Positions 1,088 through 42,563 of a DNA stretch of 64,000 nucleotides are shown piece by piece. Position 1 is the first letter of the stretch. Each line of letters opens with the position of its first letter. Origin of the DNA: an uncultured Planctomycetia bacterium. GTDB lineage: Bacteria; Omnitrophota; Gorgyraeia; 2-01-FULL-45-10. The notes under the pieces are model-generated. The model was not told the origin of the DNA and made no database searches. It saw only the letters and a list, made by a program, of their open reading frames with translations. Location of the stretch: positions 18,240 through 82,239 of the forward strand of contig CAYGRZ010000002.1 in assembly GCA_964352425.1 (NCBI GenBank), read 5' to 3'. Both the position numbers and the translations under genes were made by a program.

Positions 1088-2037
1088 TGAAGCGTTTTTT
1101 CACGATCGCAGCGGTCGTCATAGCCATCCTCGCCGTACATTCGCTCTCGCCCGTCATCTGGCTCTACCTCAAACAATGCCCGCCTCAGCCGACCAATGAG
1201 CAGGCCGTGGCAAAGCTCAAGGCAAATACGGGCGACCATTTCGCGTTCATCGCGTTCGGCGACAACCATGCCGGCTTTATTTTCGACGACAGCGCGGCCG
1301 TCAAGATGATACGGCTCATGAACAGGGAAGATCGGTTCAAGAAGCTGCCGATAGATTTTGTGGCGAACCTCGGGGATGTCACGTTCTCGAAAGGCCGCGA
1401 GTGGGACTACCGCGTCTACGACAAATTGCGCTCGATGATACGATGGCCGGTCGTGAGCGCCATGGGTAACCACGACTACCAGAAAGGCGGCTGGCGTATG
1501 TTTAAGAGCCGTCTCGGGAGCTGTCAATTCGCCTTCGCGAACCGCAACTCGTATTTCATCGTCCTGGACCTCAAGATAACCGACCCGACCGAGGAACAGT
1601 TCGCGTGGGTGGAGGGCGAGCTGAAAAGATCGGCCGGCTATACGCACAGGTTCATCTTTATGCACAAGCCTCCGATATCGCTGTACCAGCGGTCGTGGTT
1701 CAGGCCGGAGCTCAGCCCGTGGTCGTATCGCCTCATGAAACTCTGCGAAAAATACAGCGTCGACATGGTGATGGCCGGCCACGAGCACATGTTCAAGGAG
1801 CGTCTCTTCGGCGGCGTGCGCTACATCATCTCGGGCGGCGGCGGCATGCTGCCGCAGATACCGGAGTCCGATGGCGGCTTCCTGCATTATGTGATGGTCA
1901 GGGTGTACGGCGATTACGTCGATTACGAGGTGCGCAGGGTCTTCCCGCCGCTCTGGGAATTCCTGACGTATTATATGTGGAAAGAGGCATTTTACGGCCT
2001 CAAGCACGTCTTCTTTAAAGACGGCATCTTACTGTGA
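1087..2037 (+). CDS. Membrane-anchored metallophosphoesterase (calcineurin-like phosphoesterase)
   Basis: Motifs GDNHAG, GNHDY and GHEHMF are typical of the metallophosphatase fold. N-terminal TM helix. Start overlaps the previous stop (ATGA). Confidence 0.75.
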   Translation: MKRFFTIAAVVIAILAVHSLSPVIWLYLKQCPPQPTNEQAVAKLKANTGDHFAFIAFGDNHAGFIFDDSAAVKMIRLMNREDRFKKLPIDFVANLGDVTFSKGREWDYRVYDKLRSMIRWPVVSAMGNHDYQKGGWRMFKSRLGSCQFAFANRNSYFIVLDLKITDPTEEQFAWVEGELKRSAGYTHRFIFMHKPPISLYQRSWFRPELSPWSYRLMKLCEKYSVDMVMAGHEHMFKERLFGGVRYIISGGGGMLPQIPESDGGFLHYVMVRVYGDYVDYEVRRVFPPLWEFLTYYMWKEAFYGLKHVFFKDGILL

Positions 2038-2046
2038 CAGGGGACG

Positions 2047-3141
2047 ATGAAAATACTCAGGGATTACATATTAAAAGAGTTCTTCCATTCGTTCTCGCTC
2101 TCGATAATCGTCTTCACGTTCGTCCTCTTAGTCGGTAACATCATACGGCTTGCCGACCTCGTCATCAATAAGGGCGTCGATATAGTCTCCGTCTTCAAAC
2201 TCTTTTTCTATCTCGTGCCGTGGCTGCTGAGTTTCACGCTGCCGATCGCGGGGCTTACCGCGGTCATCCTGACCTTCGGCAGGTTCTCGAGCGACGGGGA
2301 GCTCGTCGCGATGAAGGCGAGCGGGATCTCGCTCTACCGGGTCGCGTCGCCGATCCTGATGATCGGTGTGATCCTGAGTTTCGTCGCGTTCCTGCTGAAC
2401 GACCAGATATCGTCGAACGCTTCATTCGCCTCGCGCCAGGTGATCAAGGAGATAGGGATAAAGAGCCCGGCGGCGTATCTCGAGGAAGGCACCTTCATAC
2501 GGGGGTTTGAGAACTATGTCATCTTCATCTACGAGATACGAGGCAACAAGCTGAAGAACATAAGGATATACCAGCCGCAGGAGGGTAAGGCGACCCGCAC
2601 GATCGTGGCGGAGCAGGGCGAGATAAATTCCATTCCCTCAAAAAACATCATAGAGCTGAAGCTCTTCAACGGGACGAGCGAGGAGCCGTCCCCGACCGAC
2701 CCGGAGAGTTTCTACAAGTTGAATTTCAAGACGTACTTCATGTCGCTCGACCTGACGAAGGTCTTCAAGAAGGAGAAGATCCAGAAGAAGACCAGAGAGA
2801 TGACCGTAAGCGAGCTGCATGAGCAGATAGCCGACTATGCCGCGCAGAAGATAGACACGACGCCGCTGTATGTGGAGATCTACAAGAAGATAAACATGTC
2901 GGCCTCCGGGATCGTCCTCGTCCTGCTCGGGATACCGCTGGGCATACGGGCGCACAGGAGCGAGAAGTCGATAGGGTTCGGGATAAGCTTGCTCCTTTTT
3001 GCCGTCTACTGGGGGGCGTTTTTGGGAGGAGTGGCGCTCGCGCTGAAGGGCGCCGTGCCGCCCGCTATAGGTGTTTCCCTGCCGAATGTCGCGTTTTTCA
3101 TGTTGGGAACAGTGCTGTTCATACATACCGCAAGGAGGTAG
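2047..3141 (+). CDS. LptF/LptG family LPS export permease (YjgP/YjgQ)
   Basis: 364 aa. N-terminus MKILRDYILKEFF plus multiple TM segments and a periplasmic beta-jellyroll region typical of LptF/G. Confidence 0.75.
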   Translation: MKILRDYILKEFFHSFSLSIIVFTFVLLVGNIIRLADLVINKGVDIVSVFKLFFYLVPWLLSFTLPIAGLTAVILTFGRFSSDGELVAMKASGISLYRVASPILMIGVILSFVAFLLNDQISSNASFASRQVIKEIGIKSPAAYLEEGTFIRGFENYVIFIYEIRGNKLKNIRIYQPQEGKATRTIVAEQGEINSIPSKNIIELKLFNGTSEEPSPTDPESFYKLNFKTYFMSLDLTKVFKKEKIQKKTREMTVSELHEQIADYAAQKIDTTPLYVEIYKKINMSASGIVLVLLGIPLGIRAHRSEKSIGFGISLLLFAVYWGAFLGGVALALKGAVPPAIGVSLPNVAFFMLGTVLFIHTARR

Positions 3142-3290
3142 CAAATATGGGACAGAAAAGCCAGTACCAGATCGAGAATAAACAGAGGCAAAAGAGGAAA
3201 AAGGCGAGGCAGAAACTCACCAAGAAGGGCGAGAACCTGTCTGAATTTTATTACGGGAAGTTCTACATAAAGCAGGGCTAGGCGGGCGGC

Positions 3291-4232
3291 ATGTACGACA
3301 TAGCGATACTGGGCGGCGGGCCCGCGGGCCTGACCGCGGGGCTCTACGGGAGCCGCGCGAGGATGAAGACCGTGCTGATCGAGCGCGCGGCGTGCGGCGG
3401 CCAGATCCTCATCACCGATACGATAGAGAATTTCCCGGGTTTTCCGGAAGGGATCAAAGGGCCCGACCTTGCTGACTGGATGGCCAAACAGGCCGCTCAC
3501 TTCGGCCTGGAGGTCACGCTCGCCGAGGCCAAGTCGGTGGCTTTGGGTGAGGACGGGGGAGGGCCTTTTTCGGTCGAGCTTTCCGACGGCGCGAAGGTGC
3601 GGGCGCTCGCGCTCATACTGTCGACGGGAGCGAGATGGAACGAGCTGGGGATCCCCGGCGAAAAGGAGCTCGCGGGCAGGGGCGTGTCTTATTGCGCCAC
3701 CTGCGACGGCCCGCTCTTCAGGAATAAAGAGGTCGTGGTGGTCGGCGGCGGCGATACCGCGCTCGAGGACGCGCTCTTCCTGGCGAAGTTCGCCGGCAAG
3801 GTGACGGTGGTCCACCGCCGCGAACGCTTACGGGCGACGAAGATACTGCAGGAGCGCGCGCTCGCGAATAAGAAGGTGGAGTTCTGCCTGAATTCGGTCG
3901 CGGTGAGGATAACCGGCGGCGCGAAGTGTGAGGCACTCGAAGTGAAGGATGTCACTACCGGCAGCACGAAAGCCATGAGGGCGGATGGCGTGTTTGTCCT
4001 GATAGGGATGGCGCCAAACTCAGGTTTAGTAAAGGGCATCGTGAAGCTTGATGAGAAGGGCTACGTGCTGTGCGATGACGATATGAAGACCTCGGTAGGC
4101 GGGATATTCGCCTGCGGGGATGTCCGTAAGAAGCTCCTGCGGCAGGTCGTGACCGCCGCAGGCGACGGAGCGACCGCGGCCTTCAGCGCCCAGCATTACG
4201 TCGAGCGCCTGAAAGGCGTCGAGTACAAATAG
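3291..4232 (+). CDS. trxB: Thioredoxin-disulfide reductase
   Basis: GGGPAG FAD motif, CATC redox-active dithiol, second GGGDTA NADPH motif. 313 aa. Confidence 0.9.
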   Translation: MYDIAILGGGPAGLTAGLYGSRARMKTVLIERAACGGQILITDTIENFPGFPEGIKGPDLADWMAKQAAHFGLEVTLAEAKSVALGEDGGGPFSVELSDGAKVRALALILSTGARWNELGIPGEKELAGRGVSYCATCDGPLFRNKEVVVVGGGDTALEDALFLAKFAGKVTVVHRRERLRATKILQERALANKKVEFCLNSVAVRITGGAKCEALEVKDVTTGSTKAMRADGVFVLIGMAPNSGLVKGIVKLDEKGYVLCDDDMKTSVGGIFACGDVRKKLLRQVVTAAGDGATAAFSAQHYVERLKGVEYK

Positions 4233-4339
4233 TATTGACTACGCATAGGGTTCGTGTTAATTTAATCGTGCATATTTTTCCGATTGATGTGCCGAGATCC
4301 TTCGCTTCGCTCAGGATCGGCCGATAAGAAGACCATGAT

Positions 4340-4414
4340 GCCGAGGTAGCTCACTGGTAGAGCGCTGCCCTGAAAAGGCAGGCGTTGCGTGTTCGATTCA
4401 CGCCCTCGGCACCA
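4340..4414 (+). tRNA. tRNA-Phe (anticodon GAA) with encoded CCA
   Basis: Cloverleaf read manually: acceptor GCCGAGG/CCTCGGC, D-arm GCTC/GAGC, anticodon stem CTGCC/GGCAG with loop CTGAAAA, T-arm GCGTG-TTCGATT-CACGC, discriminator A then CCA. Confidence 0.85.
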
Positions 4415-4481
4415 TTCTTCGGATTCACTGCGGCCACCTATCACACTGGTTGGTAGGCCTTGTGAATCCTCAGAATTCCAA

Positions 4482-4507
4482 GGGGGAAAACGGGGTTTTC
4501 CCCCTTT
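4482..4507 (+). terminator. Hairpin GGGGGAAAAC-ggg-GTTTTCCCCC followed by TTTGG, a possible terminator after the tRNA
   Basis: Perfect 10-bp stem seen directly, with a short T-run. Confidence 0.45.
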
Positions 4508-4592
4508 GGCGTTCGCTCACCAGTAATCATTCCAGGTTCGCTCACTGAACCCCCTTTCCTTAAAGGAGTCTCAATCAATCTCGGGCCTACTT

Positions 4593-4631
4593 TATACAAG
4601 AGAAGGAAAAATATTTTCCTTCTCTTGTATA
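4593..4631. terminator. 39-bp perfect palindrome (18-bp arms), candidate bidirectional terminator
   Basis: TATACAAGAGAAGGAAAA-ata-TTTTCCTTCTCTTGTATA, AT-rich on both sides. Confidence 0.45.
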
Positions 4632-4729
4632 TCTTATCCTTTTAAAAAGGAAATAATAGCCTCAATTACATTGACCACATTATAGGCGAGTGGTATTATA
4701 ATTCTACAGTCGAAAAAGAGGAGGCGCTT

Positions 4730-5158
4730 ATGACGAAGAAGGTAATTTTGTTGATTTTAGTTTTATTCACCGCCGCTTTCGTCGCGCAGCTTGCCTTCGC
4801 GCAGCCGGCTAATCAGGACAGCACCAGCGAGCGCATTGCCGCGGAGAGGAGGGCCCAGGATCTGCTCGAGAGGGGTATCGCCCCGCACGATCGCATCAGG
4901 GCGACGACAACCGAGGAGCGCAAGTACGATAAGAGCGTGGACGGCTGGCTGCAGCCATCGGAGGCAAAAAAGATGTTGGAGGACAGGGCCTCGCCAAAAT
5001 TCGGTACGTATAAGACAAAAGCCGATAAGGAGCCGAAAGAAAAGTATGATCCCTACGGCACCGACGAGGCCGATGAGGGATCCGCGACAAAATACGACCG
5101 ATACGGAAACGAGGTAACCGGCGCTGACGAGCCGCCGGCGCCCGATGAGAGCTTATAG
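4730..5158 (+). CDS. Hypothetical secreted protein with charged KYD-x-YG repeats
   Basis: Signal peptide MTKKVILLILVLFTAAFVAQLAFA. Candidate TTGACC-17-TATTAT promoter and AGGAGG RBS upstream. No recognisable domain. Confidence 0.5.
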   Translation: MTKKVILLILVLFTAAFVAQLAFAQPANQDSTSERIAAERRAQDLLERGIAPHDRIRATTTEERKYDKSVDGWLQPSEAKKMLEDRASPKFGTYKTKADKEPKEKYDPYGTDEADEGSATKYDRYGNEVTGADEPPAPDESL

Positions 5159-5717
5159 CAAGAAGAGAGCGATGCGAAACATAAGGAACGTCTTCAGGGG
5201 CAGGCTGCTTAAGGTGATGGTGAAGCAGCAGCGCCTGCCCAGCGGCTATCTCGCCATCTTCGAGATGATCGAGCACCCCGGCGCCAGCCTTGTGGTGCCA
5301 TTCCTGGGCAGGGACAGGATAATAATGCTGAGGCAACTCAGGCCGGTCATCGGGTCCCACATATATGAACTTCCTGCCGGCACGCTCGATAGGAATGAGA
5401 CGCCGCTGGCATGCGCCCGACGGGAGATCGTAGAAGAGACGGGGTACTCCGCCAGGCGTTTTACTCTTTTGGGAAAGATATATCCGGTCCCCGGCTACTC
5501 GACGGAGAGGATATACCTATATAAAGCCACAGGATTGAAGAAAGTAATACACGATTGTAGGGCACGCTTAAGTGTGCCCTACCAGCGCCATGGAGAAGAG
5601 GATGAGGTCATAGAATCTTTCGTTGTCACAAAGTCTGCAATAAGAAAGCTCTTCAGGAGCGGAAAGATCACCGACGCAAAGACCATAGCCGCCCTCGCCT
5701 TCTGCGGATGGCTCTGA
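5145..5717 (+). CDS. NUDIX hydrolase (ADP-ribose pyrophosphatase-like) carrying an in-frame palindromic insertion
   Basis: NUDIX box GTLDRNETPLACARREIVEETGY. Start uncertain (Met codons at 5145 and 5172). Residues IHDCRARLSVPYQRH are encoded by a REP-like palindrome. Confidence 0.7.
   Translation: MRAYSKKRAMRNIRNVFRGRLLKVMVKQQRLPSGYLAIFEMIEHPGASLVVPFLGRDRIIMLRQLRPVIGSHIYELPAGTLDRNETPLACARREIVEETGYSARRFTLLGKIYPVPGYSTERIYLYKATGLKKVIHDCRARLSVPYQRHGEEDEVIESFVVTKSAIRKLFRSGKITDAKTIAALAFCGWL
5554..5582. repeat. REP-like palindromic element copy (ATTGTAGGGCACG-CTTAAG-TGTGCCCTAC) inside the NUDIX CDS
   Basis: Matches the perfect palindrome at 36655-36686 at 28 of 29 aligned positions. Confidence 0.6.
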
Positions 5718-5739
5718 CCAGATCGGAAAGATCAAGACC

Positions 5740-6930
5740 ATGGAAAATAAGACGATACGATTGAGGAGCGGCCGCCAGGGCAGGTATCAAAGCGGCCACC
5801 CGTGGATATACAGGAGCCAGCTCTTAAAGGCGGATCTTTCGATAAAGCCGGGCAGCGTCGTCACCGTGCAGGCATCGGACGGCGCGTTTATCGGCAAAGG
5901 CTATTTCAACCCGCGGTCGGAGATAGCCGCGCGGATCCTCACCTTTCAGGACGAGCCGGTAGATGCCGCGTTCTTTGACGCGAGAATACGCTCGGCATTC
6001 GGGAAGCGGGAGCATCTGGCAGCGAAGACGAACGCCTGCCGTGAGGTCTTCAGCGAGGCCGACGGCCTTCCCGGGCTCATCATCGACATGTATGCCGATA
6101 CCGCCGTTATGCAGATCATGACGCTCGGCATGGATATGTTCAGGGACGAGATCCTGCAAGCCATCCGGGCGATAGTGAAACCAAAATATATATACGAGAA
6201 GAGCGACTCGCCGTTCCGGAAACCGGAAGGCCTGAAGATGAGAGAGGAGTGGCATGGCCAGCCCGGGCCCTCGACGATAGAGATATCCGAAGGAAAAGCG
6301 CGGTTTATCGTCGATATCGGGCGCGGCCACAAGACGGGCTTCTATCTCGACCAGAGGCCTTCGCGGATGGCGATGCATACGGTCTCGAAGGGTAGGCTCG
6401 TGCTCGACCTCTTCTGTTACACGGGCGCGTTCGCGGTCCATGCCGCGCTCTCGGGCGCGCGCGATGTGCTCGCGGTCGATATCAAGGAAGACTGGCTCGA
6501 ACTCGGCCGTCGGAACGCCGATCTGAACGGCGTTGCCGGCAGGGTCACGTTCGCAAAAGGCGATTCGCTCGTCTTCCTCAGGCATATACAGCGCTCCGGC
6601 AGGACTTTTGATATGATAATAATCGACCCGCCGTCGTTCATAAAGGCGAAGGATTCACTTGCCGCGGCGTCGAAGGGGTACAAGGACCTGAACCGGACGG
6701 CGATGAGATGCCTGAATCAATCAGGCGTTCTGGCGACGTTCTCGTGCTCCCATTACATGCCGAACGACATATTCTCGCGCCTGCTGAAAGAGGCGGCCTC
6801 CGAGGCGGGTAAGTCGATCTCGATAGTGAAACGGTGCCATCAGGCGGAAGACCACCCTATCGTACAAGGCATCCCCGAGACCGAGTACCTGAAGGGGTAT
6901 TTTCTTAACGTAGAGAGCGTGGTAAAATAA
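5740..6930 (+). CDS. rlmI: Class I SAM-dependent 23S rRNA (m5C1962) methyltransferase, RlmI family (PUA plus methyltransferase domains)
   Basis: N-terminal GHPWIY motif, DLFCYTGAF SAM-binding motif, 396 aa. Confidence 0.75.
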   Translation: MENKTIRLRSGRQGRYQSGHPWIYRSQLLKADLSIKPGSVVTVQASDGAFIGKGYFNPRSEIAARILTFQDEPVDAAFFDARIRSAFGKREHLAAKTNACREVFSEADGLPGLIIDMYADTAVMQIMTLGMDMFRDEILQAIRAIVKPKYIYEKSDSPFRKPEGLKMREEWHGQPGPSTIEISEGKARFIVDIGRGHKTGFYLDQRPSRMAMHTVSKGRLVLDLFCYTGAFAVHAALSGARDVLAVDIKEDWLELGRRNADLNGVAGRVTFAKGDSLVFLRHIQRSGRTFDMIIIDPPSFIKAKDSLAAASKGYKDLNRTAMRCLNQSGVLATFSCSHYMPNDIFSRLLKEAASEAGKSISIVKRCHQAEDHPIVQGIPETEYLKGYFLNVESVVK

Positions 6931-6933
6931 ACT

Positions 6934-7782
6934 ATGTGCGCCAAAGTAAGCCAGGTAGTATCGCGGCTCGTTCCTGACGGGCCCGTAAAGGAAGCCTGTA
7001 CGAGTTTCTACTATAGCCTCTACTATAACCGCAGGCATTTCAGGGAGAACGGGTTCCGCGTCAACTACAAAAAAGGCCATTTCACGTACGGCTTCGACGA
7101 CGGCGTCTCGTTCTCCTCCTATGAAAACATGGCCGATGAGCTCAAGCGTTCGCTGAAAGGGTATCTCGCGAAGTATGCGCTGAGGAAGGGCGATACGGTG
7201 GTTGATTGCGGTGCGTATATCGGCGAGTTCGCGCTGTGCGCGGCGAGCGCCGTCGGGCCTTCGGGCGCGGTGATAGCGTTCGAGCCGGACCCGGCGATAT
7301 TCGGGAAGCTGAAGGCGAATGTGATGCTGAACGGGTTCGAAAATGTCGTGATGGTCAATAAGGGCGCGTGGAGCGCCGACGGCGTGCTGCAGTTCGTCGG
7401 GGATAACGTGCGGGGCTATTCCTTCATGTTCGCGGATAAGGGTCACGGCGCCATCGATATTCCCGTCGCAAGCCTCGACAACGAACTCGGGCGGCTCGGC
7501 GTGAAGAAGGTGAATTTTATCAAGATAGACGTCGAGGGCGCGGAGCTGGAGCTTATCAGGGGCGCGGAGAAGACCTTAAAGGGAAATGATGTGAAGGCGG
7601 CGATCGCCTCGTATCACGTCGTCGATGGTAAGAAGACCTGCGCCGAGGTGGAGAGGATGTTCAGGTCTCTCGGGTATAACGCTGCGACCGCGCATCCGCA
7701 GCACCTGACGACGTATGCATGGAAGGATTCGGCGAGATGTGGTAGACGTGATGTAACGGAAAATAATCGGGGGGTGTTATGA
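6934..7782 (+). CDS. FkbM family methyltransferase
   Basis: [11 protein letters not shown] motif and overall FkbM-like layout. 282 aa. Confidence 0.65.
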
Positions 7783-7933
7783 GAATATTCGGGATCGGTA
7801 TACAGGAGCTTCTGGTCGTCCTGCTTATCTGCCTTCTCGTCTTCGGCGCCGCGAAGCTGCCGGAGATAGGGCGCGCACTGGGCAAGACCATAAGCGAGTT
7901 CAAGAAGTCCCTTAAAGAAGAAGAAAAACCGTA
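7779..7933 (+). CDS. tatA: Twin-arginine translocase subunit TatA/E
   Basis: 51-aa [54 protein letters not shown] (TM helix plus amphipathic helix, FGxxKLP motif). Absent from the ORF track because it is under 60 aa. Confidence 0.8.
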
Positions 7934-7943
7934 AGCGTTTCCG

Positions 7944-8684
7944 ATGGATGAACGGCGACTGACCGTTATCGGGCATCTCGAAGAACTGAGAAAGATGGTC
8001 ATCGTATCGCTGGTCGCGCTGGCCCTCGCTGCGATAGCGTGCGCGCCGTTTGTCTCCGCCATCCTGAAGCTCTTGAAGCTCCCCGCCGCAGGCCTGATCG
8101 AAAAACTCGTCTACTTCAGCCCCGAGGAATCGTTCCTCATCTACATGAAGGTAAGCATCCTGGCGGGGCTCTGCCTGGCGTTTCCCGTTATCGCGTACCA
8201 GTTCTGGAAATTCATCGCCCCTGCCCTCGACGCGCCCTTCACGAAGTTCGCGGCCGCGTTCACCGCCGCCGCAACGCTGGCGTTTGCCGGCGGCTGCCTC
8301 TTCGCCTACCGCGTGCTGCTGCCCACGGCGCTGCGGTTCCTCCTCACGATCGGTAAGGGCGACCTCGAGCCTGTCATATCCGCCACGAAATATATCTCTT
8401 TTGTCGTCGGTTTCATGGCCGCCTGCGGCGCGGTCTTTGAGATGCCGGTCGTGTGCTACTTCCTGGCACGGGTCGGCCTGCTGGACGCGCGCGCGATGCG
8501 GTCAAAGTTCAAATATGCGTTCGTGGTCATCTGTATTGCCGCCGCGGTCATTACCCCGACGGGGGATGCGTTTAACATGGCGATGCTCGCCCTGCCGATG
8601 CTCGCGCTCTACGAGGTCAGCATATGGGTGGTCTTCGTCAGCCGGAAGAGGAAGGCCCGCGATGCTGCAGAAATTGTTCGGTAG
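7944..8684 (+). CDS. tatC: Twin-arginine translocase subunit TatC
   Basis: 246 aa, six TM segments, TatC-typical N-terminus (LTVIGHLEELRKMVIVSL). Confidence 0.85.
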   Translation: MDERRLTVIGHLEELRKMVIVSLVALALAAIACAPFVSAILKLLKLPAAGLIEKLVYFSPEESFLIYMKVSILAGLCLAFPVIAYQFWKFIAPALDAPFTKFAAAFTAAATLAFAGGCLFAYRVLLPTALRFLLTIGKGDLEPVISATKYISFVVGFMAACGAVFEMPVVCYFLARVGLLDARAMRSKFKYAFVVICIAAAVITPTGDAFNMAMLALPMLALYEVSIWVVFVSRKRKARDAAEIVR

Positions 8685-9624
8685 GACGCTATCGAGGCGC
8701 CAGTTCCTGAAATTGTTTTTTTCGATGCTCGCGCTGCTGCCGCTATCCGGGCTGGCCGGGCGGAAGGCGGACGCCATTGGTGCCGGATTTAACGGGAGGC
8801 CCAAGTCGGACATCCGCGGCGACTATGACCTCGTCATCGCGAAAGGCGAAGATCCGTACGCGCTCACCGTGAAGGCAGTGGAGTCGATGGGAGGCATGGA
8901 GCGGTTCGTCAAGAAAGGATCCGTCGTCCTGATCAAGCCGAACATCGGGTGGGACCGCACTCCCGAGCAGGCGGGGAACACCAACCCGCGCGTCGTCGCG
9001 GCCCTTGCCGACCTCTCGTTCAAGGCGGGCGCGAAACGCGTTAACGTATTCGACATAACCTGTAACGACGCCCGGCGCTGCCACGCCTCGAGCGGTATCG
9101 AAGCGGAGGCGAAAGCATCGGGTGCGAGCGTCTATTTTCCCGACGATTGGGATGTGGTCAAGGCCCGGTTCGGCCGCGCGAGCGCGATGGAGGACTGGCC
9201 GATCCTGCGCGATGCGATCGAGTGCGATACCTTTATCAATGTCCCGGTGCTGAAACATCACGGCCTGACGCGGCTGACGCTCTCCATGAAGAATCTGATG
9301 GGCGTCTGCGGCGGTGACAGGGGAGAGATCCATCGCGATATCGGGCCGAAACTTGTCGATCTGGCCGGTTTCATTAATCCGGATCTCACCGTCATCGATG
9401 CCTACCGCGTTCTGGTGAGGAACGGCCCTACCGGCGGCAGCCTCGCCGACGTCGAGACGCTGAAGACGATCATCGTCACCACCGACCCCACGCTTGCGGA
9501 TACCTATGCCGCAAAGCTCATGAACGTCGATCCTATGGCGGTACCGTATATAAAGGTGGCCGCCGAGCAGCATTTCGGCAGCACGGATATTGAAGCCGCG
9601 AAGACCATTACTGTAGAGGCCTAA
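8662..9624 (+). CDS. Tat-signal DUF362 domain protein (putative periplasmic redox or metal-cofactor protein)
   Basis: N-terminal twin-arginine motif SRRQFLK followed by a hydrophobic segment. DUF362-like core (VLIKPNIGWDRTP). ATG at 8662. The track ORF starting at 8284 is an out-of-frame overlap with tatC. Confidence 0.65.
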   Translation: MLQKLFGRTLSRRQFLKLFFSMLALLPLSGLAGRKADAIGAGFNGRPKSDIRGDYDLVIAKGEDPYALTVKAVESMGGMERFVKKGSVVLIKPNIGWDRTPEQAGNTNPRVVAALADLSFKAGAKRVNVFDITCNDARRCHASSGIEAEAKASGASVYFPDDWDVVKARFGRASAMEDWPILRDAIECDTFINVPVLKHHGLTRLTLSMKNLMGVCGGDRGEIHRDIGPKLVDLAGFINPDLTVIDAYRVLVRNGPTGGSLADVETLKTIIVTTDPTLADTYAAKLMNVDPMAVPYIKVAAEQHFGSTDIEAAKTITVEA

Positions 9625-9628
9625 AGCC

Positions 9629-11179
9629 GTGAAGAAGCTCGTCGTTGTGCGGCGCATTTCGCAGGGGCTCTTTCTGGCGCTCTTCATCCATATCCTGTGG
9701 TCAACCACGTATCCGCTCACAGGGTTCTTTCCGCCGTCCACGTTCTTTGTCACGGATCCTCTCCTCATCATCATGACGAGCGTTGCCGAGCGCATCGTTT
9801 TGCCGGGGCTCGTTTTTGCGCTGGGAATGACCGGCCTTGCGCTGGTCCTCGGCAGGGTCTTCTGCGGGTGGGCCTGCCCGCTGGGGACATCGATCGATAT
9901 CGCGGGCGCTTGTCGCCGCCGGCGGCCCGGAACGGAGCCGACCGATATGCAAAATAGGGCGGTCCGGCGGATAAAATTTATCCTGCTCGCCTTGATAACC
10001 GCCGCTGCTTTCGCCGGAAAGCAGGTGGCCTGGATATTCGATCCGATCGTGCTCGCCGCGCGGTTCGTCTCGCTGAACCTCATACCGGCGGCCACCGCGG
10101 CGATAAAAGCTGTTTTCGTGATCGGCCTACGCGACCTCAAGCTCGGCGGGAGCGTGCGCGACTTTTACCACGCGCTGAAACCGACCGTCCTCGGCGTGAA
10201 GACGATGTACTTTCCGCATGCGGGCCTCATCCTGGCGTATTTTCTCGTCGTGGTGCTCGCCTCGCTCTTTATTAGCCGCCTCTGGTGCCGCGGCCTGTGC
10301 CCACTCGGCGCGTTCTACTCACTTGTCGGGCGCTGTGCGCCGCTCCACCGGACGGTGGATGTATGCACGCAGTGCGGCAGGTGCAGGGCTGCCTGCCGCA
10401 CCGGCGCGATTCGGGATGACCTGACCTACGCGAAGGGCGAATGCGTGCTGTGCATGGACTGCGTGTATGCGTGCCCTCCGCACGGGACCCGGTTCACGTT
10501 CGAGCGGACGGCATCTCGGGCAGTGCGGGCCCCGCAGGTCAGGCCGTCAAAAGACTCAGGCGGCGGCGTTACGCGCACACAATTCCTGATGCTTATGTTC
10601 TCCTCGCTTGCCCTTCTCGGCTTTAAGCGCAGGCAGCTCGAGCCCGTCACCGACAGCGGCAGCGCCGGTAGCACGGTCATACGGCCGCCCGCGGCGCTCG
10701 AAGAAAAAGATTTCATCGGCCGGTGCGTGCGGTGCGGCAACTGCATGAAGGTCTGCATTACTAACGGCCTCCAGCCGGCGATGTTCGAAGCGGGATACGA
10801 CGGGATCTGGACGCCGCGCCTGGTCCCCGAGATAGGGTACTGCGAGTACCGCTGCACGCTCTGCGGCACTACCTGCCCGACAGGAGCGATACCGAAGATC
10901 ACCCTTGAGCAGAAGATGCTGACCCCCCTCGGCGTGGCCGAGGTCGACCGTAGCTTGTGCATACCGTGGGCGGAGGGCAAGGAATGCATCGTCTGCCAGG
11001 AGCACTGCCCGGTCCCGGAGAAGGCGATCATGCTGGACCGCGAGGGCGGCGGCGTGCAGAAGCCGCGCGTTTCGGAAGAGCTCTGCGTGGGCTGCGGCAT
11101 CTGCCAGTATAAATGTCCGATACGGCCGGCGCGCGCGATACGGGTTGTGCCCAGGAACAGCTACAGAACAAAAATATAA
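9629..11179 (+). CDS. Membrane-bound polyferredoxin (NapH/MauN family 4Fe-4S binding protein)
   Basis: N-terminal TM region with a CGWACPLG motif and a second LWCRGLCPLG motif, plus about six CxxCxxCxxxCP ferredoxin motifs. GTG start. Confidence 0.75.
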   Translation: MKKLVVVRRISQGLFLALFIHILWSTTYPLTGFFPPSTFFVTDPLLIIMTSVAERIVLPGLVFALGMTGLALVLGRVFCGWACPLGTSIDIAGACRRRRPGTEPTDMQNRAVRRIKFILLALITAAAFAGKQVAWIFDPIVLAARFVSLNLIPAATAAIKAVFVIGLRDLKLGGSVRDFYHALKPTVLGVKTMYFPHAGLILAYFLVVVLASLFISRLWCRGLCPLGAFYSLVGRCAPLHRTVDVCTQCGRCRAACRTGAIRDDLTYAKGECVLCMDCVYACPPHGTRFTFERTASRAVRAPQVRPSKDSGGGVTRTQFLMLMFSSLALLGFKRRQLEPVTDSGSAGSTVIRPPAALEEKDFIGRCVRCGNCMKVCITNGLQPAMFEAGYDGIWTPRLVPEIGYCEYRCTLCGTTCPTGAIPKITLEQKMLTPLGVAEVDRSLCIPWAEGKECIVCQEHCPVPEKAIMLDREGGGVQKPRVSEELCVGCGICQYKCPIRPARAIRVVPRNSYRTKI

Positions 11180-11187
11180 TCTTCCTC

Positions 11188-11215
11188 TTGCTTTTTTTGA
11201 TTGGTAATGTATAAT
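11188..11215 (+). promoter_or_regulatory. Candidate sigma70 promoter TTGCTT-16-TATAAT for the Cys-rich mini-protein gene
   Basis: Hexamers read directly. AAGGAGG RBS follows at 11228-11234. Confidence 0.45.
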
Positions 11216-11241
11216 ATACAGATAAAGAAGGAGGTCGTAGT

Positions 11242-11547
11242 ATGAAGAAAATGGTTGTGTTAGCGGTTGTGGTGGCGTTCGCCCTCAGCGCAATGCCCCT
11301 CTTTGCCGCAGAGAGCACTTGCGCGAAGTGCGGACAGAGCGTAGCGTGCGAGAAATGCCCGAGGAGCCCGTTCCAGGCTATAGCGGATACCGTAAATTGC
11401 ATGAAACCGCCCCCGCGCGGCTGCGGACAGGTGCCGAAGCTGATCCCGGTCCCGTGCAAAGACGTATCGATCTTCAATGATACGGCCTGCGCGTTGCAGA
11501 AAACCGGCAAGTGCGGCTGCCCGGCTTGCAAGAGTAACTGCAAATAG
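11242..11547 (+). CDS. Secreted cysteine-rich small protein (12 Cys in a ~79-aa mature region)
   Basis: Signal peptide MKKMVVLAVVVAFALSAMPLFA. Mature part contains CAKC, CEKC, KCGCPACKSNC and other Cys. Own promoter, strong RBS and terminator. Confidence 0.6.
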   Translation: MKKMVVLAVVVAFALSAMPLFAAESTCAKCGQSVACEKCPRSPFQAIADTVNCMKPPPRGCGQVPKLIPVPCKDVSIFNDTACALQKTGKCGCPACKSNCK

Positions 11548-11571
11548 TCATCATAAGTTCTTAGTTGTTTA

Positions 11572-11615
11572 AAGACACTACCGGTCTTTGCGGCCGGTGG
11601 TGTCTTTATGCTTTA
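11572..11615 (+). terminator. Rho-independent terminator after the Cys-rich protein gene
   Basis: Stem AAGACACTACCGG/CCGGTGGTGTCTT followed by TTTATGCTTT. Confidence 0.55.
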
Positions 11616-19023: not shown

Positions 19024-20187
19024 TTGATAGTTTCCAGGCGCCATAAAAAGCTGGCGCTCAAGACAAGGGTCATCAGAAAGATAGAAGAGGTGTCCCGCGA
19101 CGCCTGGTGCAGTGTATTTCCCGATGTCCTTGAGAGCTACGATTTCTTCAGGACCCTCGACGAATCCGGCCTCGAACAGTTCCCTCTGTATTATATCCTC
19201 GTCTGCGATCGTAAAACATTAGTCGGCGCGACGGCGTGTTTCCTGGTGAACTATTCGCTCGATACGAGCATCAGCGGCCCGCTACGGCGCCTCTCCAATT
19301 CGATAAAGAAGATCAATCCCAATATCTTCAGCCTGAAAGCGCTCGTCTGCGGCATGCCGATAGGGCAGGGGAGGATCGGCATCGCCCGTGACGGCGATAA
19401 GGTCCTGAAGGTCATCCTGCGGCGCATGGAACAGATCGCAAAGAAAGAAAAATGCGCTATTCTGGCCTTTAAGGACTTCCAGGACTCGTACGCCCTGCTC
19501 CTCGACCCTCTCCGGAAAGAAGGCTTCTCAAAGTTCGACAGCCTGCCGACGACCGAAATGAACGTCACGTTCAAGAGTTTTGAGGAATATCTCGGGACTT
19601 TGAGCGCGGCATCCAGGTACGACCTGCGCAGGAAGTTCAGGAGGGTGGACGGCCACGTCAAGCTCGACATGCGCATCACCGATACGCTCGACGACCATAC
19701 CCTTCGCGAGGTGTACAAGCTCTATCTCGATATCGTCGACATGCACGATATGGGATTCGAGCTCCTGCCCATGGCCTTCTTCAGAAATTTGTCGAAGAAC
19801 ATGCCCGACCGCGTCAGGTACTTCCTCTGGAGATCCGAAGGAAAGCTCGTCGCGTTCCTCCTGTGCCTGGTCTCGAAAGACATGCTCATAGATTATTACG
19901 TGGGGATGGACTATGCTGTCGCCCACAAATATCATCTTTACTTCCTGAAGTTCCGCGATGTCCTGAACTGGTGCATCAAGCACGGCATAAAGACATACGA
20001 GATGGGCATCACCGGGTACGAGCCGAAGAGAAGGCTGAACTTTCAGTTCATACCCCTCTATCTCTATGTCCGGCTGCGCAACAGGGCGCTCAGGCCCGTC
20101 TTTAATTTCATTTGCCAGTTCCTGAAGTTCGAGAACTTCGATCCGTCGCTCAAAGAAGCGAAAAAAGCCATGAAGGAGGCGAAATGA
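19024..20187 (+). CDS. GNAT-fold acyltransferase, FemAB-like / Acetyltransf_6 (BioF2-like) family
   Basis: About 390 aa with a pattern recalling FemAB-type N-acyltransferases (FLWRSEGKLVAFLLCL, GIKTYEMG). Family assignment is tentative and the start is uncertain. Confidence 0.45.
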   Translation: MIVSRRHKKLALKTRVIRKIEEVSRDAWCSVFPDVLESYDFFRTLDESGLEQFPLYYILVCDRKTLVGATACFLVNYSLDTSISGPLRRLSNSIKKINPNIFSLKALVCGMPIGQGRIGIARDGDKVLKVILRRMEQIAKKEKCAILAFKDFQDSYALLLDPLRKEGFSKFDSLPTTEMNVTFKSFEEYLGTLSAASRYDLRRKFRRVDGHVKLDMRITDTLDDHTLREVYKLYLDIVDMHDMGFELLPMAFFRNLSKNMPDRVRYFLWRSEGKLVAFLLCLVSKDMLIDYYVGMDYAVAHKYHLYFLKFRDVLNWCIKHGIKTYEMGITGYEPKRRLNFQFIPLYLYVRLRNRALRPVFNFICQFLKFENFDPSLKEAKKAMKEAK

Positions 20188-21551
20188 AAAAACCGCATTT
20201 AAGCATCTGGCAGATATGGAACATGAGTTTCGGGTTTTTCGGCATCCAGTTCGGCTGGGGACTGCAGATGGCGAACATGTCCGCCATCTATGAATTCCTG
20301 GGGGCGAAGTCCGATCAGATACCTATCCTGTGGCTTGCCGCGCCGCTTACGGGGCTTCTCGTCCAGCCGATCGTCGGCCACATGAGCGACCGGACGTGGT
20401 GCGCTCTCGGCCGCAGGAGGCCGTTCTTCCTCACCGGCGCGATATTCGCTTCGCTGGCGCTTCTCCTGATGCCGCACTCCCCGAGCGTGCTGATAGCCGC
20501 GTTCCTCTTGTGGGTGCTCGACTTCTCGGTCAACATAAGCATGGAGCCGTTCCGCGCGTTCGTCGGGGACATGCTTCCCGATGAGCAGCGCGCCCAGGGG
20601 TTCGCGATGCAGAGCCTCCTCATCGGCTTCGGCGCGGTCCTTGCTTCGTCGCTGCCATGGATGATGACGAACTGGTGTGGAGTGTCTTCCGCGCCTCTTG
20701 CAAAAGAGGCGGTCGATACGGTCCGCGAGACGCTCACTGTCACGCTCTCAAGCCTGACCGGCAATGCCGCTATCCCCGCGACCGTGCGCTATTCATTCGC
20801 CGTCGGGGCGGCCGTCTTCTTCTGCGCGGTCCTCTGGACCATCTTCTCGACCAAGGAATATCCGCCCGAGGACATGGAGGCGTTCCGTACAATGAAGGCG
20901 AAGTCTGCCGGGTTTGGCGCCCACGTGAAAGAGCTTGGCCGGGCGTTCGCCGAAATGCCGCGGACGATGAAGCAGCTGGCGTGGGTGCAGCTTTTCACGT
21001 GGTTCGGGCTCTTCTGCATGTGGATATATTTCTCGGTAGCCGTCGCCCATTACATATTCGGCGCCTCGGACCACACGTCAAAGCTTTTCTCTGACGGTAT
21101 CCAATGGGGAGGTATCTGCTTCTCCGTCTATAACGGGGTCTGTTTCGCCTTCTCATTCATATTGATATGGCTTTCGCGCCGGGTGAGCCCAAAAATGATC
21201 CACCTTGTCTGCCTGCTTTGCGGAGGCCTGGGGCTCCTGTCGATCAGCTTCATACACGATAAACAGCTCCTGCTCCTGCCGATGATAGGCGTCGGCGTGG
21301 CGTGGGCGAGTATCGTCTCGATGCCGTACGCGATGCTCTCGGGCGCGCTCCCCTCCGATAAGATGGGTGTCTACATGGGGATATTCAATTTCTTTATCGT
21401 GATACCGCAGATCGCAGCGTCGCTCGGCCTCGGATGGGTGATGAGGAGTTTTCTGCATGACAATTCGATGCTCGCTGTCATGATGGGGGGTGCCAGCATG
21501 ATCATCGCCGCGCTCCTGGTCCCGCGCGTCGAAGTGAAAGAGACAGCGTGA
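20184..21551 (+). CDS. MFS transporter, SLC45/sucrose-H+ symporter-like (GPH family)
   Basis: 12 TM segments. GHMSDRTWCALGRRRPF motif typical of sucrose/oligosaccharide:H+ symporters. ATG at 20184 with a GGAGG RBS, overlapping the previous stop. Confidence 0.75.
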   Translation: MKKPHLSIWQIWNMSFGFFGIQFGWGLQMANMSAIYEFLGAKSDQIPILWLAAPLTGLLVQPIVGHMSDRTWCALGRRRPFFLTGAIFASLALLLMPHSPSVLIAAFLLWVLDFSVNISMEPFRAFVGDMLPDEQRAQGFAMQSLLIGFGAVLASSLPWMMTNWCGVSSAPLAKEAVDTVRETLTVTLSSLTGNAAIPATVRYSFAVGAAVFFCAVLWTIFSTKEYPPEDMEAFRTMKAKSAGFGAHVKELGRAFAEMPRTMKQLAWVQLFTWFGLFCMWIYFSVAVAHYIFGASDHTSKLFSDGIQWGGICFSVYNGVCFAFSFILIWLSRRVSPKMIHLVCLLCGGLGLLSISFIHDKQLLLLPMIGVGVAWASIVSMPYAMLSGALPSDKMGVYMGIFNFFIVIPQIAASLGLGWVMRSFLHDNSMLAVMMGGASMIIAALLVPRVEVKETA

Positions 21552-21558
21552 CATTTCT

Positions 21559-24306: not shown

Positions 24307-24318
24307 ACGGGGGGAAAG

Positions 24319-25884
24319 ATGAAAAGAAAAGCCTTTGTGGCTGTGGTGTGTGCGTGTGCTGCCTTGCTTTCAGGCAGTCCGGTTTTCGCGCAAAGCGCGC
24401 CGGAGGGCGATGTCGCGGCGATGAAGAAAGAGATCGAAACACTGAAGAACCGCATGGTGGCGCTCGAAAAGATCATCGTCAAGCAGCGGATCATCCCGGA
24501 AGAAGAGGCGAAAGAGCGCTATCCGGCCCTCCAGGAAGAGGTGGCCGGCCAGGCCGAGCACGTAACAGCACCCGAAGCCGAGAAGATATCGGCGCAGACG
24601 ACCGTCGATCTGCTGAAGAAATACAGCACTCAGGTCGCCGAGGAATCGAAGAACATCCTCTTCAAGCAGCCCGACTACCTGCCCAACTATATTACGAGAG
24701 GCCTCGAATTCCACGGGTATTTCCGCTCCGGCTATGGCGTCAACTCCAAGGGCGGACATATGCAGGCGTTCCAGGCTCCCGACGCGCTGGCCAAGTACAG
24801 GCTGGGCAATGAACAGGAGACATATATAGAGACCGTCTTCCTGAACCGGAACTGGAACCCCGACCCGCAGGGCGTGACGCTCGAGACGCAGATCCGCGTC
24901 GCGTACCAGACGCAGCAGAACCAGACATGGGACCTCACCAACCAGGTCGTCCTGCGCGAGATGTACGCCAGGATGGGCCAGTTCCTCGATTGGGACAAAG
25001 ACGTAAAGGTATGGGCGGGCCAGCGGTTTTGCAGGCTGCCCGAACTCGATATTATCGACTTCTGGTGGTATGACATGTCCGGCTATGGCGGCGGGTTCGA
25101 GGATATCAATTGCGGGATCGGCAAACTCGATATCACATTTATCGGCTACGCCAACAATGACATTACCCTCTCGACGAACCGCGGCCGGCTCTCGAAGGAA
25201 AATCTCAATATCAAGCTGAACGATGTCGATGTGCCGTTCGGCAAGGGCATGTTCTGGGCCAACGGCGGCTTCATCAAAGGCGGTACGTGGACCGAGGACA
25301 CGACGATCAAGTATCCCGACATGGGCGGCGTCGATATCGGTTTCATGCACTATATGCCGGGCGAACTCAATAACAACCAGTTCGGCGCCCAGTTCGGCTG
25401 CGGGGCATGCACATCGCTCTCGGCAGGCGGCAATATCCCGACGGAAAGCGACGACCGGAATTCCTGGAGGGTGCGTATCACCGATATGTGGAACCGCCAG
25501 ATCACGGAGAAGCTGAGCGTGCAGGCCGTCGGCGTCTATCAGTATACCTATGACGGCGAAGCGACGAAGAACAACGAGACTTGGGTAAGCGTCGGCTTCA
25601 GGCCCATCTATATGCTTACGAAGCATTTTGGCGTTGAAGTCGAACCGGGAATGGATTATATTAATAATCCGAGGGATGATTACGATACATGCCTGTTCAA
25701 GCTGACGGGCGGCATACGCATTACGCCGGGCACGATATTCAATTCGAGGCCTGCGTTCAGGTTCTTCGCGACATACGCGCGCTGGGGCGACGGTTTCAAG
25801 GGCAATACGCTTCTTGGCGGCGATGCATTCGTGTCCCAGCGGGAAGGTATGAACTACGGTATCCAGTGCGAGAACTGGTGGTAA
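24319..25884 (+). CDS. LamB-like carbohydrate porin (maltoporin family) with an N-terminal coiled-coil extension
   Basis: Signal peptide. C-terminal FRFFATYARWGDGF...GIQCENWW closely parallels the E. coli LamB C-terminus (IRVFATYAKWDE...EIWW). About 60 N-terminal residues are coiled-coil-like (EIETLKNRMVALEKIIVKQ). Confidence 0.7.
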   Translation: MKRKAFVAVVCACAALLSGSPVFAQSAPEGDVAAMKKEIETLKNRMVALEKIIVKQRIIPEEEAKERYPALQEEVAGQAEHVTAPEAEKISAQTTVDLLKKYSTQVAEESKNILFKQPDYLPNYITRGLEFHGYFRSGYGVNSKGGHMQAFQAPDALAKYRLGNEQETYIETVFLNRNWNPDPQGVTLETQIRVAYQTQQNQTWDLTNQVVLREMYARMGQFLDWDKDVKVWAGQRFCRLPELDIIDFWWYDMSGYGGGFEDINCGIGKLDITFIGYANNDITLSTNRGRLSKENLNIKLNDVDVPFGKGMFWANGGFIKGGTWTEDTTIKYPDMGGVDIGFMHYMPGELNNNQFGAQFGCGACTSLSAGGNIPTESDDRNSWRVRITDMWNRQITEKLSVQAVGVYQYTYDGEATKNNETWVSVGFRPIYMLTKHFGVEVEPGMDYINNPRDDYDTCLFKLTGGIRITPGTIFNSRPAFRFFATYARWGDGFKGNTLLGGDAFVSQREGMNYGIQCENWW

Positions 25885-25885
25885 C

Positions 25886-25931
25886 GGGACTGTCCCCGGC
25901 TATGTGTCTTCTTGGAAGTGGGGACTGTCCC
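25886..25931. promoter_or_regulatory. Two copies of the palindromic 11-mer GGGACTGTCCC spaced 35 bp centre to centre; candidate operator pair upstream of the sugar ABC operon
   Basis: Exact repeats at 25886-25896 and 25921-25931. They flank a TTGGAA -35-like hexamer. Confidence 0.35.
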
Positions 25932-25962
25932 TATGTTAGTAATATAAGATAGGGGGTAGTCT

Positions 25963-26988: not shown

Positions 26989-27003
26989 AGAACGACCGGT
27001 TTT

Positions 27004-27029
27004 GACCTACGAGGTCGACCTCGTAGGTC
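27004..27029 (+). promoter_or_regulatory. Perfect 26-bp palindrome GACCTACGAGGTC|GACCTCGTAGGTC between the binding-protein and ATPase genes (intra-operon stem-loop)
   Basis: Seen directly. No T-run follows. This is the typical position for a stabilising hairpin after the solute-binding-protein gene in ABC operons. Confidence 0.5.
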
Positions 27030-27049
27030 GATTCGGTTAAAGGAACGCT

Positions 27050-42549: not shown

Positions 42550-42563
42550 TACGGGGATCCTGT

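Follow-up and report, generated by a model that had tools for sequence, protein, structure and literature searches.

Background

The NapGH systems of Escherichia coli and Wolinella consist of a membrane part that bears cytoplasmic clusters, NapH, and a periplasmic four-cluster protein, NapG, which is exported by the twin-arginine translocation (Tat) system. A single-chain version was described by Tooke et al. (2017; PMC5449189): the polyferredoxin (PFD) Q1NSB0, from delta proteobacterium MLMS-1, is a fusion of NapH with NapG; its helices 1-4 are inserted by Sec, and its helix 5 and four-cluster domain reach the periplasm through Tat, as was shown with fusions to MBP, AmiA and Bla and with variants changing the twin arginines (RR) to KK. 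No function was assigned to PFD in that paper, and DUF362 does not occur in its text. Here we analyse a locus of an Omnitrophota bacterium, tatA-tatC-DUF362-PFD, in which a DUF362 protein with a predicted Tat signal is encoded directly before such a polyferredoxin; the locus lies in a 64-kb stretch of DNA, and "the window" below means that whole stretch.

The DUF362 protein leads to a second group of described proteins, the nickel-pincer nucleotide (NPN) enzymes of the LarA superfamily (PDB 5HUQ, 7S91, 9EIA, 9Q3J). LarA binds NPN with its N-domain and the substrate with its C-domain; a lysine forms the thioamide bond that tethers NPN, a histidine completes the coordination of the nickel, and His108 and His174 are the catalytic pair (PMC12611868). 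DUF362 has been used as an outgroup of the LarA superfamily, and PF04015 and DUF2088 share the Pfam clan CL0471 (PMC11770544). Hundreds of prokaryotes encode NPN synthesis yet are without LarA, and aldo-keto-reductase-type NPN enzymes were found recently via gene-neighbourhood logic; DUF362 goes unmentioned in that work (PMC13524815).

DUF362 is a large, uncharacterised family, and the open literature that we searched gives no function for it and no description of its pairing with PFD; with a membrane polyferredoxin as its constant companion, it belongs to a widespread and unstudied module. The PFD family, its mode of insertion and the NapGH-type wiring of periplasmic enzymes are already known. 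New relative to the literature searched are DUF362 as the constant partner of PFD, the operon link to tatAC in Omnitrophota, the apparent retention in DUF362 of the LarA NPN-site residues, and the lar biosynthesis genes that flank the module in some lineages. By comparing related loci from many phyla, and DUF362 with LarA, we arrive at an explanation towards which we lean: a Tat-assembled periplasmic DUF362/PFD oxidoreductase, possibly NPN-dependent.

Results and discussion

DUF362 and PFD form an almost obligate pair

The genes in question lie within positions 7779-11547 of the window:

7779-7934, + strand: tatA, 51 aa; Pfam TatA_B_E 1.4e-20; TIGR01411 72.2 bits against a cutoff of 53.9
7944-8684, + strand: tatC, 246 aa; Pfam TatC 6e-59; TIGR00945 176.6 bits against a cutoff of 132.7
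8662-9624, + strand: gene for the DUF362 protein with a predicted Tat signal, 320 aa; PF04015 6.2e-45
9629-11179, + strand: gene for the polyferredoxin PFD, 516 aa, GTG start; predicted NapH-like plus NapG-like fusion

They are followed on the same strand by an open reading frame (ORF) for a mini-protein with 12 Cys, which completes the interval. An earlier note on this DNA, made from the sequence alone and called here the original prediction, had set out these five ORFs, and each was found on the + strand where the note had placed it. The ATG of DUF362 sits 23 nt inside the end of tatC, and the GTG of PFD comes 4 nt past the DUF362 stop; a single operon tatA-tatC-DUF362-PFD, encoding TatAC and two predicted Tat clients, is strongly supported.

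With the DUF362 protein as query, related loci were sought in GTDB at one genome per species, and the best 80 were kept. Relatives are encoded by at least 534 of the first 600 candidate stretches (stretches not collapsed to genomes), across more than ten mostly anaerobic phyla. The best matches, at 60-92% identity, are proteins of Candidatus Omnitrophota metagenome-assembled genomes (MAGs) and metagenomes, which makes this phylum the probable source of the window; the 80 loci come from Omnitrophota, Spirochaetota, Acidobacteriota, Aminicenantes, Nitrospirota, Nitrospinota, Desulfobacterota, Latescibacterota, Calditrichota, Glassbacteria and others. PFD adjoins DUF362 in 79 of them (tblastn; both halves in 76, one half in three), and the lone exception (L006) is a contig that stops about 200 bp after DUF362. 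A reverse survey, in which metagenome contigs were searched with the PFD alignment, gave 80 contigs: DUF362 lies at most 4 kb from PFD in 59, nine more have no room upstream, and several of the remaining 12 break off on the side on which DUF362 lies in Acidobacteria. When all ORFs of the loci were clustered all-against-all, no third gene conserved across phyla emerged.

There is thus strong support for DUF362 and PFD as an almost obligate two-gene pair across many phyla. The co-occurrence of DUF362 with NapH-like genes in other genomes, which the original prediction had named as a check on itself, is found in both surveys. Its five-gene redox module, by contrast, has to be narrowed: DUF362 and PFD are a strict pair, while tatAC accompanies them in Omnitrophota-like loci only and the Cys-rich protein drops out.

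The polyferredoxin as a NapH-NapG fusion

Three parts can be told apart in PFD:

9629-10498, + strand: NapH-like part, residues 1-290, with four transmembrane helices, two CX3CP motifs and two cytoplasmic [4Fe-4S] motifs
10565-10636, + strand: internal Tat-like signal-anchor (TMD5), residues 313-336, GVTRTQFLMLMFSSLALLGFKRRQ
10661-11176, + strand: predicted NapG-like periplasmic domain, residues 345-516, with IRPPAA and then 16 Cys

The CX3CP pairs are C79/C83 (FCGWACPLG) and C220/C224 (WCRGLCPLG), and the cytoplasmic CxxCxxCxxxC motifs span C246-C256 and C272-C282. The 16 C-terminal Cys (residues 366-496) would suffice for four [4Fe-4S] clusters. Of 30 Cys in the whole window protein, 28 are conserved at about 100% in 70 orthologs; judged from these sequences, there is strong support for a set of Cys sufficient for six canonical [4Fe-4S] clusters, with the two CX3CP motifs as a possible seventh. 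The six-cluster NapH-like polyferredoxin of the original prediction is therefore correct as far as it goes, but the NapG-like C-half behind an internal Tat-like signal-anchor had been overlooked.

Pfam recognises Fer4_5 and Fer4_7 in PFD. The NapH/MauN models of NCBIfam match its N-half and the NapG/MauM models its C-half, with scores under their cutoffs (NapH/MauN, 91.7 bits against 213; NapG, 89.2 against 269; a further model, 86.3 against 234), and NapG PRK09476 matches residues 315-511 (2.4e-25). These matches lend strong support to PFD being a NapH-NapG fusion, and it resembles NapGH in its division into a membrane part with cytoplasmic clusters and a four-cluster part predicted to be periplasmic and Tat-exported; by analogy, it may share the presumed role of linking quinol to a periplasmic enzyme. 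It is not NapH or NapG proper. PFD is one fused chain scoring far under both cutoffs, there is no napA, napB or napC nearby (and no nap, lar or other respiratory gene besides the module among the 48 ORFs scanned in the window), and the partner is DUF362 instead of a molybdoenzyme.

The likeness to the Q1NSB0 family is closer, as judged by the described features: four NapH-like helices, CX3CP motifs, cytoplasmic clusters, a weakly hydrophobic fifth helix with basic residues after it, and a NapG-like domain with four clusters. Homologs of that family occur in the same phyla (Latescibacteria, Nitrospirae, Caldithrix, Deltaproteobacteria). TMD5 of the window protein is weakly hydrophobic (Kyte-Doolittle mean 1.67, against 2.09 for TMD2 and 2.54 for TMD4), KRR comes right after it, and an (L)IRPPGA motif is conserved after TMD5 in PFD orthologs. 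The protein thus has the features of a family inserted by Sec and Tat together, and, as predicted from sequence, it is itself a likely Tat client. One feature speaks against this prediction: the residues before TMD5 are GVTRTQFLM, where T-R-T-Q-F, with Arg-Thr, takes the place of the twin-arginine motif of the PFD family. Arg-Arg stands before TMD5 in 58 of 72 PFD orthologs, and the closest relative (L001) has Arg-Lys.

DUF362 and the N-domain of LarA

The DUF362 core that the original prediction had claimed is confirmed by the hidden Markov model (HMM) PF04015, which scores 154.2 bits on the window protein against a gathering cutoff of 24 and covers the profile from position 1 to 199 of its 200. 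An AlphaFold2 model made with 121 sequences (predicted local distance difference test 91.8; predicted template-modelling score 0.85) strongly supports a fold like that of the NPN-binding N-domain of LarA. In Foldseek, E <= 1e-3 was reached by LarA-family entries alone, and the nearest structural relatives of the model are enzymes. The Pfam DUF362 HMM also matches genuine LarA proteins (residues 82-245, E 1e-5, 26 bits) above its gathering score. The original prediction had described DUF362 as a domain of no assigned function, which agrees with the literature searched; given this predicted fold, it is not featureless.

Alignments of 74 and 121 orthologs have the following invariant or near-invariant polar residues: K92, N94, D98, R99, T107, D131, N135, R139, C140, D189, N193, K198, H200, T206, K210, N211, R220, H224, D246 and D263. 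Several of them make up one candidate site:

9259-9333, + strand: putative cofactor site, with invariant His200 (9259-9261), Thr206, Lys210-Asn211 (9289-9294) and His224 (9331-9333)

In a gapless profile scan, DUF362 residues 183-214 fall on LarA 157-188, the top of about 390 placements (z 4.8, the runner-up far lower), and in AlphaFold2 models of LarA and DUF362 the secondary-structure elements are colinear with the same +26 offset. In this register His200 would correspond to LarA His174, Thr206 to Ser180 and Lys210 to Lys184; the helix that follows is two residues shorter in DUF362, which would place His224 at LarA His200. LarA Lys184 and His200 are invariant in our LarA alignments (A3, A4), and we take them to be the tether and the nickel ligand, following the numbering of Desguin et al. 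2015. From the register and the order of secondary structure, we infer that DUF362 keeps the residues of the LarA NPN site.

Several results weigh against reading DUF362 as a close counterpart of LarA. At the position of the catalytic His108, DUF362 has no His (T133/C134/N135), and the substrate-binding C-domain is absent. Neither Lar_N (PF09861) nor LarA_C (PF21113) matches the window protein at E <= 0.01, and the chain is too short for LarA_C. Our own HMMER, hhalign and profile alignments of DUF362 orthologs with LarA were not significant: hhalign and hmmsearch gave nothing significant against 3 or 123 LarA sequences, a home-made profile Smith-Waterman comparison did no better than shuffled controls, and a PDB sequence search with the DUF362 protein and its ortholog profile gave nothing meaningful. 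Because of these non-significant comparisons, the residue equivalence stands on a local gapless register, on secondary-structure order and on the match of the Pfam DUF362 HMM to LarA, and is not a superposition. DUF362 differs from LarA also in being Tat-exported (by prediction) and always paired with Fe-S carriers. NPN binding is put forward as a hypothesis drawn from sequence and model.

Only one Cys is conserved in DUF362 orthologs, and the domain itself is therefore unlikely to bind an Fe-S cluster through Cys ligands. The H-x9-KN motif (His200 to Lys210-Asn211) is kept in every DUF362 paralog checked, including cytoplasmic ones that carry a 2x[4Fe-4S] ferredoxin insert about 30 residues past it. 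Because of this two-cluster insert, the wiring of the H-x9-KN site to Fe-S clusters would seem to be a general property of the DUF362 family, as the sequences suggest. These cytoplasmic DUF362-ferredoxin proteins, presumably of the COG2768 type, resemble the window protein in the DUF362 core, the H-x9-KN motif and the wiring to [4Fe-4S] clusters; unlike it, they hold the clusters within the same chain and have no signal peptide. Such a paralog (DUF362-Fer4; about 355 aa) is present in several Omnitrophota-like loci: directly after PFD in L010 (5716-6786), L045 (8488-9561) and L086 (2265-3329), nearby in L004, L005, L007 and L089, and on the same contig in L165 (1197-2264). None is encoded in the 64-kb window.

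A separate weak alignment recurred between DUF362 residues 55-93 (8824-8940) and residues 279-317 of the LarA C-domain (z 3.8), and it was this weak match that hhalign and hmmsearch preferred. The LarA stretch is the start of the C-domain and contains Gln295 and Lys298, and in DUF362 the stretch forms the first beta-alpha-beta unit; the likeness could reflect an ancient duplication or a convergence of Rossmann-like units.

lar genes beside the module

On one metagenome contig (L131), genes for NPN biosynthesis stand on one strand with the module, in the order larE, larC, larB, PFD, a lipoprotein gene and two Tat-type DUF362 genes:

761-1717: larE; TIGR00268 315 bits against a cutoff of 150
1742-3064: larC; LarC1 200 bits against 90, LarC2 142 bits against 50
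3061-3810: larB; NF033503 294 bits against 175
3977-5638: PFD, with the lipoprotein gene next
6204-7205 and 7202-8233: the two DUF362 genes

The order larE-larC-larB-PFD recurs in L143 (299-3250) and L146 (488-3477); in L163 (9-1600) PFD follows a partial larC and larB, with one gene in between, and L137 has larB at the contig end (2-346). A lipoprotein gene with two tandem Tat-DUF362 paralogs is the form seen in the acidobacterial-type lar clusters. In a Glassbacteria MAG (L063), larE (2915-3769; 312 bits) lies about 450 nt after DUF362-PFD. The lar genes score above the NCBIfam cutoffs, and no LarA homolog was found in these six lar-linked loci (L131, L143, L146, L163, L137 and L063).

The weight of this association is reduced by three facts. 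The acidobacterial-type contigs are interrelated (their LarB proteins are 79-90% identical), so that the lar-linked loci amount to about two independent lineages. No lar gene occurs in the window or in most of the 167 related loci. In a Korobacteraceae MAG (L062), a genuine LarA-superfamily gene (9473-10675), whose best model is the malate racemase LarAH6 (390 bits, under the cutoff), lies 2.7 kb downstream of the DUF362 genes, and lar genes near the module could therefore serve LarA.

In a single case, an Omnitrophota contig (L164), the gene directly upstream of DUF362-PFD encodes the quinolinate synthase NadA (9027-9950). NadA acts in the pathway toward nicotinic acid adenine dinucleotide, the precursor of NPN.

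A proposed mechanism and what competes with it

The Tat-assembled oxidoreductase that we favour might work as follows. The adjacent TatAC would export DUF362 and PFD with their cofactors already received; loading in the cytoplasm would account for the need for Tat. Mature DUF362 would dock on the NapG-like four-cluster domain of PFD, and electrons would travel between the DUF362 active site and the membrane, where, on the model of NapGH, menaquinol would be the partner at the NapH-like part. The active site, around His200, Lys210 and His224, would hold NPN or a closely related pyridinium cofactor, with Lys210 and His224 as its holders and His200 as the acid/base. The outcome would be a periplasmic reductase or dehydrogenase, in which the cofactor handles hydride and the Fe-S chain carries electrons one by one.

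Our confidence differs between the parts of this proposal. A two-subunit, Tat-assembled redox module is highly probable. For the quinone pool as the source or sink of electrons, a role argued from NapGH by analogy, belief and doubt are about equal. An NPN-type cofactor in DUF362 is proposed tentatively, and that Tat-DUF362 proteins are a new class of NPN enzyme, the first outside the cytoplasm and the first coupled to an Fe-S wire and the membrane, seems rather unlikely as a whole. The substrate could be of a small carbonyl/alcohol type, such as a hydroxy acid or a sugar; the analogy with the LarA family favours this weakly, and we consider it doubtful. A concrete hypothesis on cofactor and mechanism does follow from the predicted fold, taken with the conserved His-Lys-His and the larECB genes that occasionally lie nearby. 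If DUF362 does use NPN, it would explain part of the surplus of NPN-making genomes without LarA, and NPN chemistry would extend to the periplasm and to electron-transfer chains.

As a self-contained, two-part envelope oxidoreductase that would draw electrons from the respiratory chain and have a Tat-exported periplasmic catalytic domain supplied by a membrane redox protein, the module may be likened to the MsrPQ and Sco3746-type systems, the fused versions of which require both Sec and Tat (PMC5449189). The analogy ends there: the sequences are unrelated, and where those systems use the molybdenum cofactor and heme b, this one would use Fe-S clusters and a LarA-like site.

The alternative that survives best, though we judge it somewhat unlikely, is a real two-subunit module in which DUF362 is without NPN and its conserved His, Lys, His, Asp and Asn residues bind some other ligand (a mononuclear metal, a different nucleotide-derived cofactor or just the substrate), Tat being needed only as DUF362 folds or binds metal in the cytoplasm. 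NPN is a hydride carrier, and we know of no precedent for coupling it to Fe-S one-electron carriers; a hydride-moving cofactor next to a one-electron Fe-S partner is thus a point in favour of this alternative. So are the lar genes missing from the window and most loci, the lack of a His108 equivalent and of the LarA C-domain, the failure of the Lar_N HMM to match the window protein at E <= 0.01, and the standing of DUF362 as an outgroup to the LarA superfamily and not a member (PMC11770544). NPN itself is favoured by the coincidence that the tether and ligand residues of LarA are the ones that appear invariant and in register in DUF362, by the larECB clusters without larA right beside PFD/DUF362 in at least two lineages, and by the fact that the N-domain is the NPN-binding half of LarA.

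A second alternative leaves DUF362 as it is and changes the route of the electrons: PFD would be a transmembrane conduit from a cytoplasmic donor, such as a ferredoxin or the DUF362-ferredoxin paralog, through its cytoplasmic and then its periplasmic clusters to DUF362, and no quinol dehydrogenase. NapH-like proteins of the NosR and RdhC types are thought to carry electrons from cytoplasmic donors. The two invariant cytoplasmic [4Fe-4S] motifs and two CX3CP motifs of PFD would suit such a role, as would its scores far under the genuine NapH and NapG cutoffs and the DUF362-Fer4 genes directly after or near PFD in some Omnitrophota-like loci, those right after PFD in L010, L045 and L086 making the idea plausible for some lineages. 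These genes are, however, confined to Omnitrophota-like loci and absent from the window, PFD has no heme or other evident membrane-spanning cofactor, and NapGH, the nearest relatives with a characterised role, work as a quinol dehydrogenase (PMC5449189). On balance we regard the conduit as unlikely.

Tat signals and the linkage to tatAC

Like that of PFD, the Tat signal of DUF362 is a prediction from the sequence:

8662-8775, + strand: predicted Tat signal peptide, DUF362 residues 1-38
8692-8712, + strand: SRRQFLK motif, residues 11-17, with an ADA cleavage motif at residues 36-38

The N-terminus is MLQKLFGRTLSRRQFLKLFFSMLALLPLSGLAGRKADA/IG, and the Tat motif reported in the original prediction is there: SRRQFLK (SRRxFLK), a hydrophobic stretch (residues 18-33) and an AxA site. 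A point against it is the score of the PF10518 TAT_signal HMM (14.9 bits), below its cutoff of 22.7, and TIGR01409 does not match the window signal; an Aminicenantes ortholog (L038) is above the cutoff for both models. The RR motif is present in 67 of 84 DUF362 proteins of the loci. It is found in 120 of 120 orthologs retrieved from outside Omnitrophota, whereas 120 orthologs of the Omnitrophota clade have SRR in 36, SRK in 61 and SRG, SRA, SRW and similar in the rest. Apart from a spurious ORF inside the GH77 gene, no match to canonical SRRxF, and so no other real gene with one, was found elsewhere in the window.

The internal motif of PFD is relaxed likewise (TRTQF in the window, SRKNF in L001, TRGQF in L011). 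The relaxed motifs of the Omnitrophota clade may reflect co-adaptation with the linked TatAC, as far as sequences can suggest it; as a side possibility, Omnitrophota might keep for this module a TatAC adapted to relaxed SRK, SRG and RT motifs.

The order tatA-tatC-DUF362-PFD also occurs in L001, L002, L016, L083, L084 and L165. DUF362 is preceded by tatC, with no tatA detected, in L003, L007, L085 and L089; in L011 tatAC lies about 0.9 kb upstream; and tatC does not adjoin the pair in the Omnitrophota loci L004, L005, L009, L010, L081 and L164. Linkage to tatAC is thus a trait of Omnitrophota-like loci, of about half of them and of no other phylum, and within that range the original prediction was right to set Tat genes beside their presumed substrates. 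PFD as a predicted Tat client supplies a second reason for the linkage. The locus would be a natural test case for Tat, with a minimal TatAC beside two predicted clients, one of which is expected to need both Sec and Tat; the frequent replacement of the second Arg of the Tat motif in the Omnitrophota clade adds to this value.

The adjacency of tatAC could instead be without functional meaning, a general translocase that happens to lie upstream in this lineage. The restriction to about half of the Omnitrophota-like loci and to no other phylum fits chance placement, and the tatC product scores as an ordinary TatC. We nevertheless find chance improbable: the tatC/DUF362 overlap suggests translational coupling, the same order is seen in at least eleven separate loci with DUF362 proteins 50-76% identical to that of the window, both downstream products are predicted Tat clients, and the unusually relaxed Tat motifs of the clade hint at co-adaptation with the local translocase. 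NapH-/NapG-like proteins often support other enzymes (NosR/NosGH for NosZ, MauMN for methylamine dehydrogenase), and this habit, together with the position of the module among housekeeping genes (NUDIX, RlmI, FkbM), could make DUF362 and PFD accessory or maintenance factors (electrons, cofactor maturation) for a periplasmic enzyme encoded elsewhere, a view that we consider very improbable given that no conserved third gene stands by the pair in 160 loci from many phyla, that the DUF362 residue pattern resembles an active site, and that enzymes are the nearest structural relatives of DUF362.

In Aminicenantes-type loci (L166 and L167, 8803-9996; about 27 Aminicenantes/Acidobacteriota loci), the gene directly upstream of DUF362-PFD encodes an AMIN-domain N-acetylmuramoyl-L-alanine amidase. 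In other bacteria, such amidases count among the classic substrates of Tat.

The Cys-rich ORF and the surrounding genes

Two further features lie downstream of PFD:

11242-11547, + strand: Cys-rich ORF, 101 aa with 12 Cys; orphan, predicted to be secreted
11570-11608, + strand: 17-bp hairpin 3' of the Cys-rich ORF, a likely terminator (-35.3 kcal/mol, z -7.56, RNA fold)

The Cys-rich ORF is separated from PFD by a 62-nt AT-rich spacer bearing an AAGGAGG ribosome-binding site; TATAAT is visible at about 11213-11218, though no sigma-70 promoter was called by the scan. Its product has a hydrophobic N-terminus and matches no Pfam or NCBIfam model, and an exact-sequence look-up returned no record. 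HMMER, run exhaustively against 1.84 billion representative proteins, turned up only two real relatives, one at 70% identity that keeps 9 of the 12 Cys and one at 37% that keeps 2. The protein had originally been counted as a member of the module, and this did not hold up; as a redox partner it was rejected, since none of the 80 genome loci encodes a homolog and its Cys are not conserved in its relatives. It is a lineage-restricted secreted orphan, located downstream by chance.

Upstream of tatA, the window has genes for a NUDIX protein, RlmI and an FkbM-type methyltransferase, and the tatA ATG overlaps the stop of the methyltransferase gene (ATGA). The order NUDIX - RlmI - (FkbM methyltransferase) - tatA - tatC - DUF362 - PFD is conserved in related Omnitrophota (window 5145-7934; L083 1477-5267; L081 2747-4444), and in L081 it comes after the ATP synthase operon. 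This synteny and the FkbM/tatA overlap suggest one long housekeeping transcript.

Downstream of the module, the window continues with galT, a TolC/HlyD/ABC-2 efflux set and genes for alpha-glucan utilisation. The alpha-glucan/maltodextrin cluster (20112-29691, 42312-44474 and 50824-55871) includes a GH77 4-alpha-glucanotransferase with CBM20, a LamB porin, a sugar ABC transporter, a glucoamylase-like protein with CBM9, a GHL10 protein and a GH13 branching-type enzyme, which point to a saccharolytic lifestyle.

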